Source: a virus
DNA: 64,000 bases
Strand: one strand, 5' to 3'
IMG/VR virus record: IMGVR_UViG_3300045049_000339
Location: 1-64,000 of that record
Shown piece after piece: positions 11,821-61,126 of the stretch. Position 1 is the first letter of the stretch; every line of letters begins with the position of its first letter. Both the position numbers and the translations under genes were made by a program. The notes below the pieces were generated by a model that saw only the letters and a program-made list of their open reading frames with translations, searched no databases and had not been told where the DNA came from.

Positions 11821-12092
11821 ACGACTTCCTGCCGGTGGAGATTCCCGGCGATGGAACGTGCACGTACAACGATTACACGGCGGGGGTGAACAAGATCCTC
11901 CTGCTCCAGCTCCAGCGCCCTGAGAAGACGCGCTGGCGCCGTGGTCAGACGTACATGAACTTGCTGTGGATGGCACGCCGGGACCTGTACGACCAGGTCA
12001 CCAATACCGGCCTCGACCCGTTTTATGTCGAGGAGCACGTTCCGGCATTCCTCGACTGGCTCGCCGCGAATTGGGGCGACCAGGATGAATGA
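11817..12092 (+). CDS. hypothetical protein
   Basis: RRGQTYMNLL...LDPFY pattern; GTGA overlap. Confidence 0.65.
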   Translation: MNDFLPVEIPGDGTCTYNDYTAGVNKILLLQLQRPEKTRWRRGQTYMNLLWMARRDLYDQVTNTGLDPFYVEEHVPAFLDWLAANWGDQDE

Positions 12093-12345
12093 CGCCGAAT
12101 ACTGGCGTGGAAAGGCCGAGCGCTATCGTCTCGCGTGGCTTTCCGCGAAGCGCGGACGGGCTGCCTGGTTCAAGCTCTACATCGAGCTGATCAACCACTA
12201 CAGCGACCGGCGTGGACTGCGGTACCTGAACCTGGCCCGTGAGCACTCCAAGACGATTCGGCGGCTGACCGAGGAATTGCGGGACTACCGCCTCGCCGCC
12301 TCGGAAGCGGAAGGCGAGAAGGCCCGTGATGCGCCATCTGGGTGA
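12085..12345 (+). CDS. hypothetical protein
   Basis: AERYRLAWLSAKRGR pattern, overlapping start. Confidence 0.6.
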   Translation: MNDAEYWRGKAERYRLAWLSAKRGRAAWFKLYIELINHYSDRRGLRYLNLAREHSKTIRRLTEELRDYRLAASEAEGEKARDAPSG

Positions 12346-29777: not shown

Positions 29778-29835
29778 CTTGACCAACTCCTCTTCCTGCC
29801 TGTATGCTTGAAGCAGGAAGAGGGACGGAGGGACC

Positions 29836-30345
29836 ATGGAACAACCGCTGTTCACGGCGCTTGCGACATGGGCCTCGACTTCCCGTCGCAGTCTTGCCCG
29901 GCAGGGCTGGACGGTGTTGCTGGAGGAGTCCGAGGAGGACGATCGTCTGGTGGTGGAGCTTGAGAACGACTTCCACCTTGGGCGGTTCGTCCTCCAGGAC
30001 ATCGGCCTCGTCGAGATAGGCGTTCTCGACAAGGCCACCGGAGATATCCGGCGTGGGGAGTGCGAGGTCTACACCGAAGGCCAGCTCGAAGACGCCGTCA
30101 CTCAGTTCCTTGGGTGGCTGGGTCAGGAAAACGGCCGGGTGGAACGGGTCGAGCAAGTCGCGTGTCCGCACAACAAGATCATCTACGACAGCAGGCCGGA
30201 GGCCATCGCCGTCGTCAAGGCGATCACTAGCAGGACCCGGATGCCCGGCTCCATCACTGAATACCAGTGCCATTTGTGTCACAAGTGGCACATTGGCGGT
30301 AGACAGGGTAGAGTGAGCATCAGGCGAAGGAGCTTTCCTCGCTAA
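29836..30345 (+). CDS. hypothetical protein with C-terminal zinc finger
   Basis: CPHNK..Y....A...YQCHLCHKWHI; promoter TTGACC(29779)-N18-TATGCT. Confidence 0.7.
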   Translation: MEQPLFTALATWASTSRRSLARQGWTVLLEESEEDDRLVVELENDFHLGRFVLQDIGLVEIGVLDKATGDIRRGECEVYTEGQLEDAVTQFLGWLGQENGRVERVEQVACPHNKIIYDSRPEAIAVVKAITSRTRMPGSITEYQCHLCHKWHIGGRQGRVSIRRRSFPR

Positions 30346-30351
30346 GAACTT

Positions 30352-30532
30352 GGGCCTGGCTGGTCGAGTCCCCTCGCGGAGGGTTCGGAAGACCTCTTGC
30401 GATTCGCTTCCGTGTTGGCGCACGGATTAGCCAAGCGAACATTCCGAGGCAAGCGGAGTGGGGGCAGACGCCTCCGGCCACGGAAGCTGTCCTGCTGCTA
30501 CAGGACAACGGGTTCGAATCCCGTCAGGTCCA
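30352..30532 (+). ncRNA. 181-nt tRNA-ended structured RNA with Ala identity (G3-U70, A73)
   Basis: GGGCCTG/CAGGTCC-A acceptor, perfect T arm acggg-TTCGAAT-cccgt, interior of at least 5 hairpins. Confidence 0.7.
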
Positions 30533-30578
30533 CTGGCTGCACCATCCGGTGCGGCTGAGGAAAAAGATAAGGAAAAGC

Positions 30579-32156
30579 ATGTCGAAGGACGAGATCAACA
30601 AGCTCGAAGCGCTCATGGACGACGGTAGCGACAAGGCGGTCGCCCGAGCGCTGGAGGCGGCCACCGCCAACGGCCTCTCCGCCCAGCAGAACGCTATCTC
30701 CGGTGAGGTGGCCAGCGACGTCGCCACCCTGGTCCTGCTGTCCGCCCTGGGCGGCAACAAGGTCCGCAAGGAGGACAGCCTCAAGTTCGAGGGCAACTCC
30801 TTCATCGTCCCGGCGGTCTACCAGAACGACATCCCCCGCGCCATCAAGTTCCTGGAGGAGTACCAGGAGACGCAGCAGGCGCCGGTCGAGATCACCCGCG
30901 TCTTCGACTACCGCTACCACGACGTGGCCCACGCGGTGCACCTGGCGCTGAAGGAGGTCTGGGGCTACACCGGCAAGGGCGTCGCCATCAAGACCATGTT
31001 CGGCGACATCGAGCCCGCCTTCCTTGACGTCAAGACCGGCGTCACCACGACCGTGCAGGTGCCCTTCAACCGGCTGTCCTTCCTGCCGCTGCACGGGCAC
31101 ATCGACATCGGCTACACCCGGCACGCCACCAAGGGCTACCTGGGCAAGATCGACATCAAGGCGCCGCGCTACTTGCGGGACGCGGTCGAGGGCTTCTACA
31201 AGGTCGTGGAGAAGAACCTCCGCGAGGCGTCGATCTACCGGGGCAAGGCGTTCCTGCTGACCCCGAACAACGAGATCGAGTTCCTCGACCTGTCCAAGTT
31301 CAAGCGCGAGGACGTGGTCTACAGCGGGGAGGCGCTGGCGCACATCGAGGCCAACCTGTGGGTCGTGCTGCGCAACATGCAGCTCATGCGGGACACCGGC
31401 CAGTCGATCAAGCGGGCCATCCTGCTGGAGGGCCCGTTCGGCACCGGCAAGTCGATGACCGGCTACCTCACGGCGCTGGAGGCCGTCGCCAACGACGTCA
31501 CCTTCATCTTCGTCAAGCCCGGCGCCGACCTCAACGAGGCCATGCAGACGGCCCAGCTCTACGCCCCGGCCGTCGTCTTCTTCGAGGACATCGACGTCCT
31601 CCAGAGCGACGACCCGGAGGAGGTCTCCACGCTGCTGGACACCTTCGACGGCCTCGGTGGCAAGGGCAAGGAGATCATCGCCGTCCTCACCACCAACAAC
31701 AAGGACAAGATCCACAAGGGCATGCTCCGTCCGGGGCGGCTGGACTCGGTGATCCACATCGGGGCGCCGGACCTGGCGGGCGTGCAGAAGCTGGTCGAGG
31801 TCAAGCTTCGCCAGACCGGCGTCAAGCTGGTGGACATCGACTGGGAGGCCGTGTACGAGGTCTGCAAGGACTTCATGCCCGCCTTCGTCGGTGAGGCCGC
31901 CGGTCGCGCCTTCCGGTACGCCATGGTGCGCCAGGGCGGCAAGCCGACCGAGCTGACCACGGACGACCTCGTCAACGCCTGCAAGGGCCTGCGTGACCAG
32001 CACGACCTCATGCTGGGCGCCCACGAGGTCCAGCCGCCGGAGACCCTGACCACGGCCATGGAGAAGATGGTCCAGAGCGTTCTGGAGCGCTCCTACGCGG
32101 TCGACGGCGACGGCGACAAGAACTGGAGCTTCTCCGGCTTCCGGGTCGAGAGCTAA
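30579..32156 (+). CDS. AAA+ ATPase (classical clade)
   Basis: Walker A GPFGTGKS, Walker B VVFFEDID, SRH LTTN...MLRPGRLD. Confidence 0.92.
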   Translation: MSKDEINKLEALMDDGSDKAVARALEAATANGLSAQQNAISGEVASDVATLVLLSALGGNKVRKEDSLKFEGNSFIVPAVYQNDIPRAIKFLEEYQETQQAPVEITRVFDYRYHDVAHAVHLALKEVWGYTGKGVAIKTMFGDIEPAFLDVKTGVTTTVQVPFNRLSFLPLHGHIDIGYTRHATKGYLGKIDIKAPRYLRDAVEGFYKVVEKNLREASIYRGKAFLLTPNNEIEFLDLSKFKREDVVYSGEALAHIEANLWVVLRNMQLMRDTGQSIKRAILLEGPFGTGKSMTGYLTALEAVANDVTFIFVKPGADLNEAMQTAQLYAPAVVFFEDIDVLQSDDPEEVSTLLDTFDGLGGKGKEIIAVLTTNNKDKIHKGMLRPGRLDSVIHIGAPDLAGVQKLVEVKLRQTGVKLVDIDWEAVYEVCKDFMPAFVGEAAGRAFRYAMVRQGGKPTELTTDDLVNACKGLRDQHDLMLGAHEVQPPETLTTAMEKMVQSVLERSYAVDGDGDKNWSFSGFRVES

Positions 32157-32239: not shown

Positions 32240-32422
32240 ATGGGCGAGAAATTGCAGCCACGTGGCGGAGCGGAAAAGCGGACGGCCGAAGAGGTGGCCC
32301 GCCTGACCGAGGTGAAGTGCGGGGCCGAAGTATCCGACACGGGATATGGCCTGCGGGCACGAGGGATCGACCGCTCCAACCGCGAGACCGAGCTGAAGCG
32401 CATCGAGAACAGGTGGCGTTGA
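32240..32422 (+). CDS. small hypothetical protein
   Basis: purine-rich leader, overlap with the next gene. Confidence 0.5.
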   Translation: MGEKLQPRGGAEKRTAEEVARLTEVKCGAEVSDTGYGLRARGIDRSNRETELKRIENRWR

Positions 32423-32928
32423 AAGTGACCACAGGCCGTGGATTCATCCTCGGGACCGGCAGCCGGTACGCGCCGCAGTGGCTCCAGGAGGAGGTCTGCA
32501 AGCGCCTCTTCGAGCTGTCGGAGACGGCCCGTACCAAGTACGGCGTCCGGCACCTCACGATCGTCCACGGCGGCGCTCAGGGCGTCGACAGGGTCATGAT
32601 GGAATGGACCCAGCGGGACCGTCTGTGGACGATCGTGGACAAGCCCTTCAAGGCCGACTGGGACGCAGCCTGCATCACGGATCGGTGCAACCACGGTCCT
32701 CGCCGGGTGCGGGACAACGGCACGGATTACTGCCAGGCACAGGGTTCGTACCGCAACGGAACGATGGTCGAATACCTGGCCAAGATGCGCGCGGAAGGCC
32801 ACTGGACGGACGCGGCGGCCTTCTTTGAAAACCCCCGCTCTGCTGGGACCATGGACTGCGTCAAGCAGGCCGAGGCCGCAGGGTTCGAGGTGAAGAAGTA
32901 TGGACGCTTCCCAGGGCGGAAAGAGTAA
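32413..32928 (+). CDS. SLOG-superfamily (DUF2493/YspA-like) protein
   Basis: ILGTGSR...IVHGGAQGVD...ADWD...RNGTMV...SAGTMDC. Confidence 0.8.
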   Translation: MALKVTTGRGFILGTGSRYAPQWLQEEVCKRLFELSETARTKYGVRHLTIVHGGAQGVDRVMMEWTQRDRLWTIVDKPFKADWDAACITDRCNHGPRRVRDNGTDYCQAQGSYRNGTMVEYLAKMRAEGHWTDAAAFFENPRSAGTMDCVKQAEAAGFEVKKYGRFPGRKE

Positions 32929-33106
32929 GAAGCAAGCCAAGCGGGTCAACGGACGCTGCTCCGTCTGCGGACGTCGAGTGCGGATGAATTTCGATAAAAC
33001 CGTCCGGGACCATTTCAGGGACAACCTGAATACCGAGAATCTCTGTCTCGGTTCCAATAAGCCTCCGACGCAGGAGCTGCGCCGGGAACGGGTAACCAGA
33101 AGGTAG
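32900..33106 (+). CDS. small zinc-binding protein
   Basis: GRCSVCGR...H...CLGS. Confidence 0.55.
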   Translation: MDASQGGKSKKQAKRVNGRCSVCGRRVRMNFDKTVRDHFRDNLNTENLCLGSNKPPTQELRRERVTRR

Positions 33107-33115
33107 GAACTAGGA

Positions 33116-33424
33116 ATGTTTGGTGACTTTTTCGGTGACGGCGACGACATTGTCGAGGAGATCATCGAGGAGGCCGTCGTGATGGACGTCCTCATGAGCT
33201 GCGGGAGCTGCTACAACACCTGCACCTGCGGCTACGGCCGCGCGCCGATGCGCCAGCCGCTCCGCGCCCAGTCGATGCAGCCCCGCCTCGCGGCGTGTGG
33301 CCGGGGCTGCTACCACGGCCAGTGCTCCTGCGCCGGGTACGACCCCTTCGGCAATCTGCTAGAGGCGATGATCGTCGAGGAGATCGTCGAGGACATGTTC
33401 GACGGCGGTAGCGACTTCTTCTGA
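33116..33424 (+). CDS. Cys-rich acidic hypothetical protein
   Basis: duplicated IVEEI and C-x2/3-CY-x-C-x-C segments. Confidence 0.6.
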   Translation: MFGDFFGDGDDIVEEIIEEAVVMDVLMSCGSCYNTCTCGYGRAPMRQPLRAQSMQPRLAACGRGCYHGQCSCAGYDPFGNLLEAMIVEEIVEDMFDGGSDFF

Positions 33425-33496
33425 CGGATCGTCGGATTGTCAGTGCCGGGTGACAGGATGGAATTCCTGCACCCGGCTCCACCAGGAAAGGCACAC

Positions 33497-34615
33497 ATGG
33501 CCACCATCGCGTTTCTGAGCCGCGACGAGATTGCCGCGCAGTTCAGCAACTACCTCGTCAACCACGTGATCCTCGTGCTGGACGCGTCGGTTTCGATGCG
33601 CCCGCACACGCAGGCCCTGATCAAGGCCGTCAGTGCACAGATCAAGCACATGTCGATCGAGACCGGCGAGACCAAGCTCAACCAGGAAACCCGCGTTGCG
33701 GTCTACACCTTCGGCGACACGGCCCACTGCATCGTCCCTGAGCGTGACGTGCACCGCCTCCCGTCGATCGACGAGGTCTACCGCATCGACGGCAACACCG
33801 CGCTGGTGGACGCCGTCACGCTCGCGCTGGACGACGCCGCGCTGGTCAGTCAGAAGTACGGCAACCACGCCTTCCTCGTCCTGGTCCTCACCGACGGCGA
33901 GGAGAACGTCTCCTCCGGCGCGAACGTGCTCGCCTTCCCGGACCGCATGAAGAACCTCCCGGACAACGTCACCGTGGCCTGTCTGGTGCCGGGCCGGGAC
34001 ACCCGCTTCTACCGTGCTCGCAGCTCGGTCGACGAGGCCGTGCGGTGGGGCTTTCCGCGCGACAATGTCGCCGAGTGGGACGTGCGCGACGTGGAGACGG
34101 CCGCACGCACCATGACGACGGCCACCACCAGCTACTTCCAGGCCCGCGCCACCGGCCTGCGTTCGACCACGAACCTGTTCTCCATGGGCGCGGACACGAT
34201 CAACGCCACCACCGTCAAGCAGAACCTGGTGCCGCTCTCCCCCGACGACTACACGCTGGTCCCGGTGACGCCGCCGAAGAAGGACTATGAGAACGGCGAC
34301 TACTGGTGGATCAAGGACTTCGCTGAGTTCTGCGGTCACAAGTACATCGCCGGACACACGGGCTACTACCAGTTCGTGTACGTGAAGGGGAAGAAGGCGT
34401 CCGAGGTCGTTTCCCCGACGAAGAAGATCATCGTCGTGGAGAAGTCCACCGGCCTCGCCTACGGCGGTCCGGCTGCCCGCCAGATCCTGGGGCTGCCCGA
34501 CAACGCGTCGATGCGTATCAAGTTCGACCACAACCCGGACTACGACATCTACATTCTTTCGTCCGCGAACAACCGCCACCTGATCCCCGGCACCAAGCTG
34601 CTCCTGCTGAAGTAA
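33497..34615 (+). CDS. von Willebrand factor A domain protein
   Basis: ILVLDASVSM, GNTALVDA, LVLTDGEEN; C-terminal YILSSANNRHLIPGT. Confidence 0.85.
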   Translation: MATIAFLSRDEIAAQFSNYLVNHVILVLDASVSMRPHTQALIKAVSAQIKHMSIETGETKLNQETRVAVYTFGDTAHCIVPERDVHRLPSIDEVYRIDGNTALVDAVTLALDDAALVSQKYGNHAFLVLVLTDGEENVSSGANVLAFPDRMKNLPDNVTVACLVPGRDTRFYRARSSVDEAVRWGFPRDNVAEWDVRDVETAARTMTTATTSYFQARATGLRSTTNLFSMGADTINATTVKQNLVPLSPDDYTLVPVTPPKKDYENGDYWWIKDFAEFCGHKYIAGHTGYYQFVYVKGKKASEVVSPTKKIIVVEKSTGLAYGGPAARQILGLPDNASMRIKFDHNPDYDIYILSSANNRHLIPGTKLLLLK

Positions 34616-49744: not shown

Positions 49745-49862
49745 GGACGGAGTGGATGCGTCGGCCGGTTCGAGTCCGGTCATCCCCAGGGATGGGGGTC
49801 TGGCTGCGGCCAGCAAATAGGGCGACGGCCCGCGCAGAGGGGTTCGACTCCCCTCCCGTCCA
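49745..49862 (+). ncRNA. tRNA-ended RNA with two T-loop arms
   Basis: GGACGG/CCGTCC-A ends; ggccgg-TTCGAGT-ccggtc and agggg-TTCGACT-cccct. Confidence 0.55.
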
Positions 49863-59443: not shown

Positions 59444-61126
59444 ATGGCCAAGTTTAACCAGAAGACCCGTACCTGGGAGAACCAGGGAGGTTCGGCCTTT
59501 CCCGCCGCAGGAACGAAGCGGCAGACCACCACGACCACGAACCACACCGGCCGTGCCGTGTGGAACCTGGACGACAAGACCAACCTGTTCTTCCGCGCCA
59601 CGTCCGCCTTCGCCGGTCAGGACACGTACTACGAGAAAGGCGCCAAGCGCGACGCCGAGGCCATCGCCTTGGTCCGAAAGCTCGCTATCGGCGACTGGGA
59701 CTGGACGGCGAAGTTCCTCGTCTGGCTGCGCGCCGAGGGCAACATGCGCACCGCGCCGGTCATGCTGGCTGTCGAGGCAGTTCGTGCACGCCTGGAGAAG
59801 AAGCTGCACCCGGCTGCCGGTGAGATGTCTCACCGTGCGCTCATCGCGGCTGTTCTCCAGCGCGCGGATGAGCCGGGCGAGATGCTCGCCTACTACGAGA
59901 ACGTCGTCGGCCGCACCATGCCGAAGGCGATCAAGCGTGGTATCGGTGACGCGGCCAAGCGCATGTACAACGAGCGCAACTTCCTGCGGTACGACAGTTC
60001 GTCCAAGGCCATCCGTTTCGGCGGCGTCGCCGAGATGGCTCAGATGCCGAAGACGCACGGCTGGCAGTCCGACCTGATCACCTACGCCATTGGTGAGCAG
60101 CACCACCGTGAGCAGGACATCCCTGACACGTTGGCGGCACTTCGTGCACGCAATGAGCTGAACAAGATGGACGCCAGCGACCGTCACGTTTTCGCGAAGA
60201 GCGCACTGGGCGGCCACATCATCAACCGCACCAAGCTGGACCTGGCCATGGCCGGGCAGTGGGAGTGGTTCATGAGTTGGCTCGGTGATGCGAAGGGTGC
60301 CAAGGCCATCACGACGAAGGAGAAGTGGACGTTCGCCGCCCAGCGCATGGGCATCATGGCGGTCGTCCGCAACCTCCGGAACTTCGACGAGGCCGGTCTC
60401 AAGACGGGCGACAGCATCGTCACCGAGATCAGTGGTCGGCTCACGAACGAGGAGCAGATCGCGAAGTCCCGCATGTTCCCGTTCCGGTTCTTCACGGCGC
60501 ACTTGCAGCTCAAGTCCGTCACGTGGGCGGCCGGTCTGGAGGTGGCGCTTCAGCACTCGCTCCAGAACCTTCCGGAGCTGCCGGGCCGGACGCTGATCCT
60601 CGTCGACACCTCGGGGTCGATGCAGCAGAAGCTCTCGGCCAAGTCCGAGATGTCCTACGCCCAGGCCGCCGCACTGTTCGGCTGTGCCCTGAAGATCAAG
60701 AACCCGGACGGGGTCAACCTGTGGGGGTTCGCCGACGGGCAGTTCGAGGCGCAGGCCACCACGGGTCACAGCGTTCTGCGCTGTGCCGAGGAGTTCTGCC
60801 GCCAGAACGGCCTGGTCGGTCACGGAACGCAGATGGAGGCGGCCGTCCGTGCCACGTACGCGGGGCACGACCGAGTCATCATCATCTCCGACATGCAGGC
60901 GTTCCCGACCGGCGGTTACAGCCGGTACGGGTACAGCTACATGACCGGTGACGTCGCTGGGGCTGTTCCGGCGCACATCCCGGTATACGGTTTCAACCTG
61001 GCCAGCGGCTCCACCACACCGCTGGGCAAGGGCAACCGGCACAGCCTTGGTGGCCTCTCGGATGTGACGTTCAAGCTGATCCCTCAGCTTGAGAAGGTCG
61101 GCCGGGGTTCGTGGCCCTGGGAGTAA
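59444..61126 (+). CDS. rsr: Ro60/TROVE domain ribonucleoprotein with C-terminal vWA domain
   Basis: QDTYYE, LRAEGNMRTAP, QRADEPGEMLAYY, PKAIKRGI.DA, MAVVRNLRNFDEAG, KSRMFPFRF, TLILVDTSGSM, IIISDMQ; RBS AGGAGG. Confidence 0.95.
   Translation: MAKFNQKTRTWENQGGSAFPAAGTKRQTTTTTNHTGRAVWNLDDKTNLFFRATSAFAGQDTYYEKGAKRDAEAIALVRKLAIGDWDWTAKFLVWLRAEGNMRTAPVMLAVEAVRARLEKKLHPAAGEMSHRALIAAVLQRADEPGEMLAYYENVVGRTMPKAIKRGIGDAAKRMYNERNFLRYDSSSKAIRFGGVAEMAQMPKTHGWQSDLITYAIGEQHHREQDIPDTLAALRARNELNKMDASDRHVFAKSALGGHIINRTKLDLAMAGQWEWFMSWLGDAKGAKAITTKEKWTFAAQRMGIMAVVRNLRNFDEAGLKTGDSIVTEISGRLTNEEQIAKSRMFPFRFFTAHLQLKSVTWAAGLEVALQHSLQNLPELPGRTLILVDTSGSMQQKLSAKSEMSYAQAAALFGCALKIKNPDGVNLWGFADGQFEAQATTGHSVLRCAEEFCRQNGLVGHGTQMEAAVRATYAGHDRVIIISDMQAFPTGGYSRYGYSYMTGDVAGAVPAHIPVYGFNLASGSTTPLGKGNRHSLGGLSDVTFKLIPQLEKVGRGSWPWE

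Follow-up and report, generated by a model that had tools for sequence, protein, structure and literature searches.

A 181-nt anticodon-less tRNA-like element upstream of an actinophage AAA+ ATPase gene and its syntenic counterparts in related phages

Genomic context of the element

The DNA analysed belongs to an IMG/VR record of a soil actinophage (107.7 kb, 99% complete, 63% G+C), and its first 64 kb (64,000 nt) are referred to here as the window. A family A DNA polymerase, a primase-helicase, nine tRNA-type genes and, after YrlA-like units, a Ro60 (TROVE) protein are encoded in the window; neither an SmpB gene nor an integrase was found in the phage genome. Streptomyces genomes hold homologues of the AAA+ protein described below at 47–48% identity, and on this ground the host is probably an actinobacterium.

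The element of interest occupies 30352–30532 of the plus strand and can be described as a 181-nt anticodon-less tRNA-like structure, in which the top half of a tRNA is built around a large folded insert (Table 1). It starts 6 nt past the stop codon of an ORF of 169 aa, the sole Pfam match of which is a weak one to TriTu, its N terminus being weakly TriTu-immunity-like. It ends 46 nt ahead of the ATG of an AAA+ ATPase gene, in agreement with the preliminary description, which had placed it directly upstream of that gene. Residues ~230–450 of the AAA+ protein gave PDB sequence matches to Afg2, Cdc48, p97 and FtsH, the module being closest to those of Afg2, Cdc48 and FtsH. A single promoter-like site was detected in the region, upstream of the 169-aa ORF (29779–29808), and no promoter-like or terminator-like site was detected between this ORF and the AAA+ gene. 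Further downstream, the AAA+ gene is followed by genes for a SLOG/YspA-like protein and a vWA-domain protein, and the AAA+ and vWA genes of the window form a MoxR-type AAA+/vWA pairing.

Table 1. Features of the element, of its surroundings in the window and of its counterparts in related phages
Feature	Position	Strand	Basis or remark
Upstream ORF, 169 aa, C-terminal zinc-ribbon-like CxxC...CxxC	29836-30345	+	ORF list; G001 homologue with 40% identity in the same position
Acceptor 5' strand GGGCCUG	30352-30358	+	Pairs 7/7 with 30525-30531; compensatory changes among syntenic elements
Single-stranded linker GCUGGUCGAG	30359-30368	+	Resembles tmRNA D-loop analogue; Streptomyces tmRNA has AUCGGUUUCGAC
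Body, three-hairpin junction closed by UCCCC/GGGG	30369-30465	+	Constrained fold; thermodynamic prediction only
H1 (loop UCGGAAG)	30374-30402	+	Constrained fold
H2	30403-30439	+	Constrained fold
H3	30440-30460	+	Constrained fold
Small hairpin UCCG-GCCA-CGGA	30473-30484	+	Constrained fold
Hairpin UGUCCUG-CUGCUA-CAGGACA	30488-30507	+	Variable-arm position, abuts T arm; in constrained and unconstrained folds
T arm ACGGG-UUCGAAU-CCCGU	30508-30524	+	Abuts 3' acceptor strand; stem pairs 1 and 3 covary among syntenic elements
Acceptor 3' strand CAGGUCC and discriminator A73 (30532)	30525-30532	+	
Hairpin GCUGCACC-AUCC-GGUGCGGC, no U tract	30533-30559	+	Starts 1-3 nt past A73; -16.5 kcal/mol, z = -3.1
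RBS AAGGA and AAA+ ATPase gene (ATG 30579, 525 aa, Cdc48/FtsH-type AAA module)	30569-32156	+	Pfam AAA
SLOG/YspA-like protein (203 aa) and vWA-domain protein (392 aa)	32317-34615	+	Weak Pfam match for the former
YrlA-like array	58.6-59.4 kb		Units score 20-35 bits on YrlA
rsr (Ro60/TROVE)	59444-61126		29 kb from element
G001 element, 100 nt, GGGUCUG...CCGGG-UUCGACU-CCCGG-CAGACCC-A			Same gap as window element
G002 element, 93 nt	L181:1036-1128		G3-U70; tRNA before it
L135 element, 68 nt			G3-U70, CUGGCGAC box, single capped helix
L145 element			D arm present
G005 element, 56 nt			

Sequence and predicted structure of the element

Re-reading of the sequence confirmed all the properties ascribed to the ends of the element in the preliminary description, namely the acceptor stem GGGCCTG/CAGGTCC with G3-U70, the discriminator A, the perfect T arm and the want of a D stem after the acceptor stem. 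All seven acceptor pairs are formed (G1-C72, G2-C71, G3-U70, C4-G69, C5-G68, U6-A67 and G7-C66), and the T stem is paired 5/5 beneath a canonical 7-nt loop. CCA is not encoded, the bases after A73 being CUGG; the phage's own tRNA genes are likewise devoid of an encoded CCA, and most of them are followed by C. The only stop codon within the element is a TAG at 30428, and the frame that it closes (...SLPCWRTD, then stop) is not tag-like, which upholds the earlier claim that no tag ORF is present.

The window contains eight T arms that are followed by a 7/7 acceptor stem, whereas 100 dinucleotide shuffles gave 0.29 on average; seven of the eight belong to the tRNA/Y-RNA region. On the plus strand of the whole 107.7-kb genome, the element holds the only T-arm motif outside that region (49.5–59.2 kb); two degenerate T-arm matches were seen on the minus strand near 93 kb. 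The heptamer GGTCGAG, read after the acceptor stem, is common here, with 42 copies on the plus strand of the genome. A scan of IMG/VR for the pattern GGTCGAG...GGGTTCGAATCCC returned 88 stretches, and a matching acceptor stem was found in the window alone.

ARAGORN called neither a tRNA nor a tmRNA at the element, and Rfam gave nothing there at its gathering cut-offs and assigned no family at E ≤ 10. The weak Rfam matches to tRNA-Sec, mascRNA and permuted tmRNA (12–18 bits) cover the T arm only and were discarded. By blastn against cultured phages only T-arm/acceptor matches of 25–35 nt were returned, tmRNAs of cluster C mycobacteriophages among them. With respect to canonical tRNA (RF00005), the element has neither a D arm nor an anticodon arm with a 7-nt Y32-U33-NNN-R37 loop. 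The loops of its constrained fold are UCGGAAG, UUGGCG, AGGCAAG, GCCA and CUGCUA; U33 is found in none of them, which rules out a decoding role. An attP site could also be ruled out, since a tyrosine or serine integrase is missing from a 99%-complete genome and both acceptor strands are present.

The interior was modelled by minimum-energy prediction with the acceptor stem and T arm forced (the constrained fold). At −86.5 kcal/mol, TCCCC/GGGG closes three hairpins and is followed by TCCG/CGGA and TGTCCTG/CAGGACA, so that the interior outlined in the preliminary description is reproduced under these constraints. The free fold, however, is a different structure, better by 2.4 kcal/mol (−88.9 kcal/mol, z = −3.6), and the interior helices have no covariation support from any relative. 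The loop of the hairpin next to the T arm counts 6 nt and is hence no anticodon loop.

Counterparts in related phages

For the comparison, 31 AAA+ homologues were aligned and 116 loci retrieved with them, the loci of the closest AAA+ homologues, P0001 (94%) and P0002 (88%), being left out of the set; a script then sought an acceptor/T-arm element with A73 upstream of the gene and on the same strand. With a single AAA+ protein or a two-sequence alignment as query, G001 alone was found. In 9 of ~85 distinct loci the orthologous AAA+ gene is immediately preceded by such an element, and a quick maximum-likelihood tree of the AAA+ proteins places the carriers (G001, G002, G004/L182, L135, L145/L152 and G005) in five separate clades. 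No tRNA-like element was seen upstream of the AAA+ gene in the more distant phages checked (Gordonia, Mycobacterium and N4-like). G001, itself an IMG/VR phage, shares the gene order of the window, and its DNA polymerase and AAA+ protein are 76% and 62% identical to those of the window; its element has G3-C70 instead of G3-U70, no GGUCGA box and a much smaller body.

As MAFFT failed to align the 5' strands, a script served to tabulate the stem pairs. Among the syntenic elements G1-C72 and A73 never vary, two-sided changes are found at acceptor pairs 4-69 (C-G, U-A, G-C, A-U), 5-68 and 6-67 and at T-stem pairs 1 and 3, and several members have a mismatch at pair 7-66. Comparison with homologues, proposed beforehand as a check, shows compensatory changes in the acceptor and T stems, and no relative lends covariation support to the helices of the body. 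The bodies vary in length between 56 and 181 nt and could not be brought into a common alignment, and that of the window element resembles only the one of G001, in having a long first hairpin with a 7-nt loop containing GGAAG. A GG..CGA-type box is missing in G001, G004 and L152. What is conserved across the relatives is the acceptor stem, the T arm and A73 only, in a constant position before the AAA+ gene, while neither the body nor the alanine mark is kept throughout.

G3-U70 is present in three of the nine syntenic elements, namely those of the window, G002 (G002b) and L135. Position 3-70 accounts for three of the four G-U pairs seen in all stems of the family. This suggests that at least some members were under selection for alanine identity, and it is plausible on the same footing that the family descends from an alanine-type tRNA-like ancestor. 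The window element is real and conserved, a tRNA-like RNA that lacks an anticodon and a tag and bears identity marks of the alanine type.

The layout downstream is constant as well. A hairpin starts 1–5 nt after N73 of every element, the hairpin sequences being unrelated, and the AAA+ start codon follows 35–58 nt past the element; the equivalents of the hairpin listed in Table 1 were seen with other sequences in G001, G002, G004, L182, L135 and L152. T arms on the strand of the AAA+ gene cluster in the ~150 nt before it (~12 of ~40 in the 3.5-kb loci). The AAA+ clades that have no element, two Streptomyces prophages included, carry a long imperfect hairpin in its place. In L183-L185 (~1000-1120) and in the Streptomyces prophages L226 and L227 (~900-1010), a conserved imperfect hairpin of ~90 nt (..CCGUAC...GUACGG..) was noted between a terminator-like hairpin and the AAA+ ribosome-binding site (RBS), and it is possible that this hairpin is an RNase III site or a stability element.

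It could be asked whether such elements are dead remnants, that is, decaying relics of a tRNA-Ala or tmRNA gene which no longer have a function. The hypervariable body, the disappearance of the alanine mark from most relatives, the mismatched pair 7-66 of several members and the frequent location of the AAA+ gene beside tRNA genes in related phages all point in this direction. Decay, however, is at odds with the intact 7/7 acceptor stem, 5/5 T stem and canonical T loop of the window element, with the constancy of position and downstream layout, and with compensatory changes that maintain the stems across AAA+ proteins only 33–62% identical, and we consider it quite improbable.

The nearness of the element to the AAA+ start also raises the thought that one of its loops masks the RBS of this gene by base-pairing and so controls translation, the more so as H1 contains a Shine-Dalgarno-like GGAGG paired with ACCUCUU. 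Yet the best duplex of the element with its own initiation region was no better than with shuffled targets in eight family members (z from −1.5 to +1.4; +0.66 for the window), a comparison on which such pairing was rejected and which leaves control of this kind with hardly any credence.

Several observations on individual loci may be recorded here. In L186 (900-1030) and L182 (985-1156), the acceptor 5' strand GGGCGGG is also the 3' half of the C(UUCG)G-capped terminator-like hairpin of the upstream gene, and this hairpin and the acceptor stem, having GGGCGGG in common, are mutually exclusive; L182 additionally has two T-arm-like hairpins. The loop of an internal hairpin in the G002 element can be read as a canonical 7-nt anticodon loop, UUCUAGA (U33, CUA, G37), which would be amber-suppressor-like on a non-canonical body and received no ARAGORN call. 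Its 75-nt neighbour (L181:949-1023) scores above the Rfam tRNA cut-off (33.5 bits) and was missed by ARAGORN. A further tRNA-like gene, of 92 nt, stands ~900 nt ahead of the AAA+ gene in 46-kb phages (L102/L182:242-333, L186:156-247); its variable arm is long, its anticodon-type loop counts 8 nt, and ARAGORN reported it as tRNA-??? with a 4-base anticodon.

Relation to tmRNA

The element had been interpreted at first as a tag-less mini-tmRNA or, failing that, as a new class of aminoacylated ncRNA, and a search with Infernal against the tmRNA models of Rfam had been put forward as the check. The claim of a new class does not stand, as a tag-less TLD-only tmRNA of mycobacteriophage DS6A has already been published (PMC4131195, PMC11915505). 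The DS6A element was located at JN698994 28478-28557 and served to calibrate the Rfam tmRNA model (RF00023), on which it scored 43.2 bits with both ends aligned. Streptomyces tmRNAs scored 165–176 bits, and other sub-threshold, mostly tRNA-sized matches in two Streptomyces genomes 16–33 bits. The window element attained only 14.3 bits, by a match at 30461–30535 that leaves its true 5' end unused, and the tmRNA family is not in its Rfam list at E ≤ 10.

In its current form, this reading supposes a mini-tmRNA of the TLD-only type with an expanded body, which, once processed and provided with CCA, would be alanylated and would either titrate host SmpB/EF-Tu, trans-translation being damped in consequence, or enter stalled ribosomes without tagging. 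Several features speak for it. The element has the 7-bp acceptor stem with G1-C72, G2-C71, G3-U70 and A73 that typifies tmRNA, departing from the acceptor stem of the latter by a flipped pair 4-69 only, and a 5-bp T arm with a UUCGAnU loop. The 3-nt linker GCU with GGUCGA resembles AUC-GGUUUCGA of Streptomyces tmRNA, as does the GGAC before the T arm, and the linker can be compared as a D-loop analogue (..GG.UUCGAC) with AUCGGUUUCGAC of Streptomyces and CAAUGGUGGUCGAC of DS6A, bearing in mind that the heptamer is common in this genome. The L135 element has the layout of the 80-nt DS6A RNA. There is, moreover, the DS6A precedent itself, and a molecule similar to the TLD-only RNA is reported to inhibit tmRNA regardless of its ability to be charged (PMC4131195, citing Mao et al. 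2009; PMC11915505).

The internal architecture argues the other way. In the register taken from the alignment to the tmRNA model (consensus GACgggag / cuuucGGA-C), helix P2a is not formed, as GAGUCCCC against ..CUACAGGA-C-A gives two G-A pairs, after which G faces G and C faces C. The body is set apart from the T arm by a surplus base and two additional hairpins, and the mRNA-like domain of a standard tmRNA, with resume codon and a tag frame of hydrophobic ending, was not found in the element. G001, the closest relative, keeps its element despite the loss of both the box and the G-U pair, and the L135 element has no tmRNA match at E ≤ 1. The phage is also without an SmpB gene, though a decoy needs none. 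Since P2a is out of register, an extra base and two hairpins intervene, and box and G-U pair are lost in G001, membership of the tmRNA family is not supported; the alanine-type marks and the absence of a tag, on which the first interpretation was founded, hold good. As only the top half is conserved, the pattern would suit any enzyme able to recognise this half of a tRNA, and it is not specific to SmpB or AlaRS. A tag-less mini-tmRNA is thus rather unlikely, albeit a candidate of some weight.

Relation to the Ro60/Y-RNA system

A free-standing tRNA mimic with some other partner was also considered. It could serve as a decoy or sponge, its targets being host enzymes or defence nucleases by which the tRNA elbow and acceptor stem are recognised, or it could have a partner in the Rsr/Y-RNA or AAA+/vWA systems. 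The phage encodes Rsr together with a YrlA-like array, the AAA+ gene of G002 and G003 is 1–3 kb from rsr with YrlA-like RNAs between or in front, a single deletion separates the box GGUCGAG from the Ro-contact motif GNCGAAN0-1G (PMC4201824), and the genome has at least one more anticodon-less tRNA-like gene (49790-49862). Against a link with Ro60, YrlA (RF02553) gave no match to the element at E ≤ 10, the boxes GGGGUA...GGUUACUUC common to the phage's own Y-like units are missing, and the element is unpermuted and lacks a canonical D arm. YrlA genes are situated no farther than 4 kb from rsr (PMC4201824), a distance far exceeded here, and GGTCGAG is common in the genome. Membership of the element itself among the Y RNAs was rejected on these counts, and another partner of any kind is considered unlikely.

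Some observations on the relatives and the tRNA cluster belong beside this subject. In G002 and G003, two related phages of ~108–135 kb, the AAA+ gene is near the Ro60 (TROVE) gene. In G002, YrlA-like RNAs of 32 and 40 bits are situated between the AAA+ gene and rsr (L181:3576-3806, rsr 12081-12281), and in G003 three tandem units of ~165 nt with a UACUUC box and a T arm are directly upstream of the AAA+ gene (L189:600-1030, rsr 108781-108960). The AAA+ ATPase may belong to a phage Ro/Y-RNA module. In the tRNA cluster of the window, the second anticodon-less gene (plus strand, 73 nt), missed by both ARAGORN and Rfam, has the acceptor GGAUGGG/CCCGUCC, A73, the T arm AGGGG-UUCGACU-CCCCU and two small body hairpins; a further uncalled T arm lies at 49764.

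Discussion

The explanation which we favour, though only tentatively, is that the element is a co-transcribed tRNA-like module which RNase P and RNase Z excise, so that the AAA+ mRNA would begin with a hairpin. A polycistronic phage transcript would run from the 169-aa ORF through the element to the AAA+ gene, and the acceptor stem and T arm would provide the minihelix recognised by the tRNA-maturation enzymes of the host. RNase P would cut at G1 and RNase Z after A73, and the two cleavages would detach the AAA+ message from the cistron before it. This message would then begin, with a new 5' end, 1–3 nt before the stable hairpin, and the hairpin could protect it against the 5'-end-dependent action of RNase E or RNase J. 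Once excised, the 181-nt RNA would gain CCA and, with G3-U70 and A73, could be charged by AlaRS.

A punctuation signal is favoured because the conserved part coincides exactly with the requirements of RNase P, RNase Z and the CCA-adding enzyme, and because the element is intercistronic with a constant layout downstream. A decoding-free acceptor/T-arm minihelix is found between cistrons on the coding strand of the window, and the same layout recurs in five AAA+ clades. The alanine mark comes and goes while the minihelix stays, and the selected property would accordingly be recognition by tRNA-processing enzymes and not charging. The presence of a different strong hairpin in the clades that have no element further suggests that a structure-specific RNA processing or stability signal is selected at this site.

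Some considerations weigh against the processing signal. A bare cutting signal needs no body of 150 nt and of such high stability (z = −3.6), and the alanine mark appears to be kept non-randomly, given the position of the G-U pairs in the family. The hairpin after the element could equally be read as the U-less terminator of a free-standing small RNA gene. G004 and L182 may form no acceptor stem, as their 5' strand is shared with the upstream terminator-like hairpin. The scattered distribution over the AAA+ tree, lastly, could come from the frequent adjacency of AAA+ genes and tRNA clusters instead of a functional link.

There is a slim chance that the RNAs of the window, G002 and L135 are alanine-accepting and anticodon-less with a function of their own, tied to the AAA+/vWA module (in relatives, the Rsr/Y-RNA module). 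Such a function might be, for example, that of an aminoacylated RNA cofactor or a ribosome-directed effector, with the body as its lineage-specific effector domain. If so, these RNAs would constitute a new class of charged ncRNA that is neither a cutting signal nor a tmRNA decoy, and a charged and active RNA would bear on the manipulation of ribosome rescue by phages. Under the processing signal that we prefer, actinophages would shape their transcripts by tRNA punctuation of the kind known from organelles.

Irrespective of the function, the analysis indicates that phage genomes hold many unannotated RNAs consisting of a tRNA top half only, which ARAGORN and Rfam miss and for which DS6A is the only case in the literature. 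What is new here is an unusually large member (181 nt), a recurrent position before a widespread phage AAA+ ATPase gene in five clades, and a family within which the alanine mark is variable and the minihelix constant.

Comparison with known systems

Embedded tRNA-like structures that are cut by RNase P and RNase Z to make mRNA ends are familiar from mascRNA/MALAT1 and from mitochondrial tRNA punctuation. Among phages, the stable RNAs species 1 and 2 of T4 (rnaC, rnaD) are ~120–140 nt long, have a tRNA-like end, are encoded inside the T4 tRNA cluster and are processed together with the tRNAs. They resemble the window element in being phage-encoded and in having a tRNA-like end; neither a decoding role nor a link to an AAA+ gene is known for them.

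A parallel to the proposed cleavage is offered by the tRNA-like t-elements which set mRNA ends in plant mitochondria (PMC1920247), being non-decoding tRNA-like structures within longer transcripts that are converted into mRNA ends by RNase P and RNase Z. The t-elements, mascRNA/MALAT1 and mitochondrial punctuation, however, belong to organelles and nuclei and not to phages, there is no kinship in sequence, and cleavage in the window is only proposed.

YrlA RNAs resemble the element in being tRNA mimics encoded by the same kind of phage. [quoted passage not shown] YrlA is, however, circularly permuted, with a T arm, a closed acceptor stem and a canonical D arm, and its ends form the Ro-binding stem, whereas the window element is unpermuted and devoid of a D arm.

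The RNA of DS6A, finally, has in common with the window element that it is phage-encoded and intergenic and that its acceptor stem of 7 bp bears G3-U70. Both also have A73 and a T arm, lack a D stem and a tag frame, and carry a sequence resembling a GGUCGA box behind the first acceptor strand. The two differ in that the DS6A RNA counts only 80 nt and its single capped P2 helix is in the tmRNA register, whereas the window element extends over 181 nt with P2a out of register and contains a three-hairpin junction and two more hairpins; the DS6A element, moreover, has no AAA+ gene adjacent to it.
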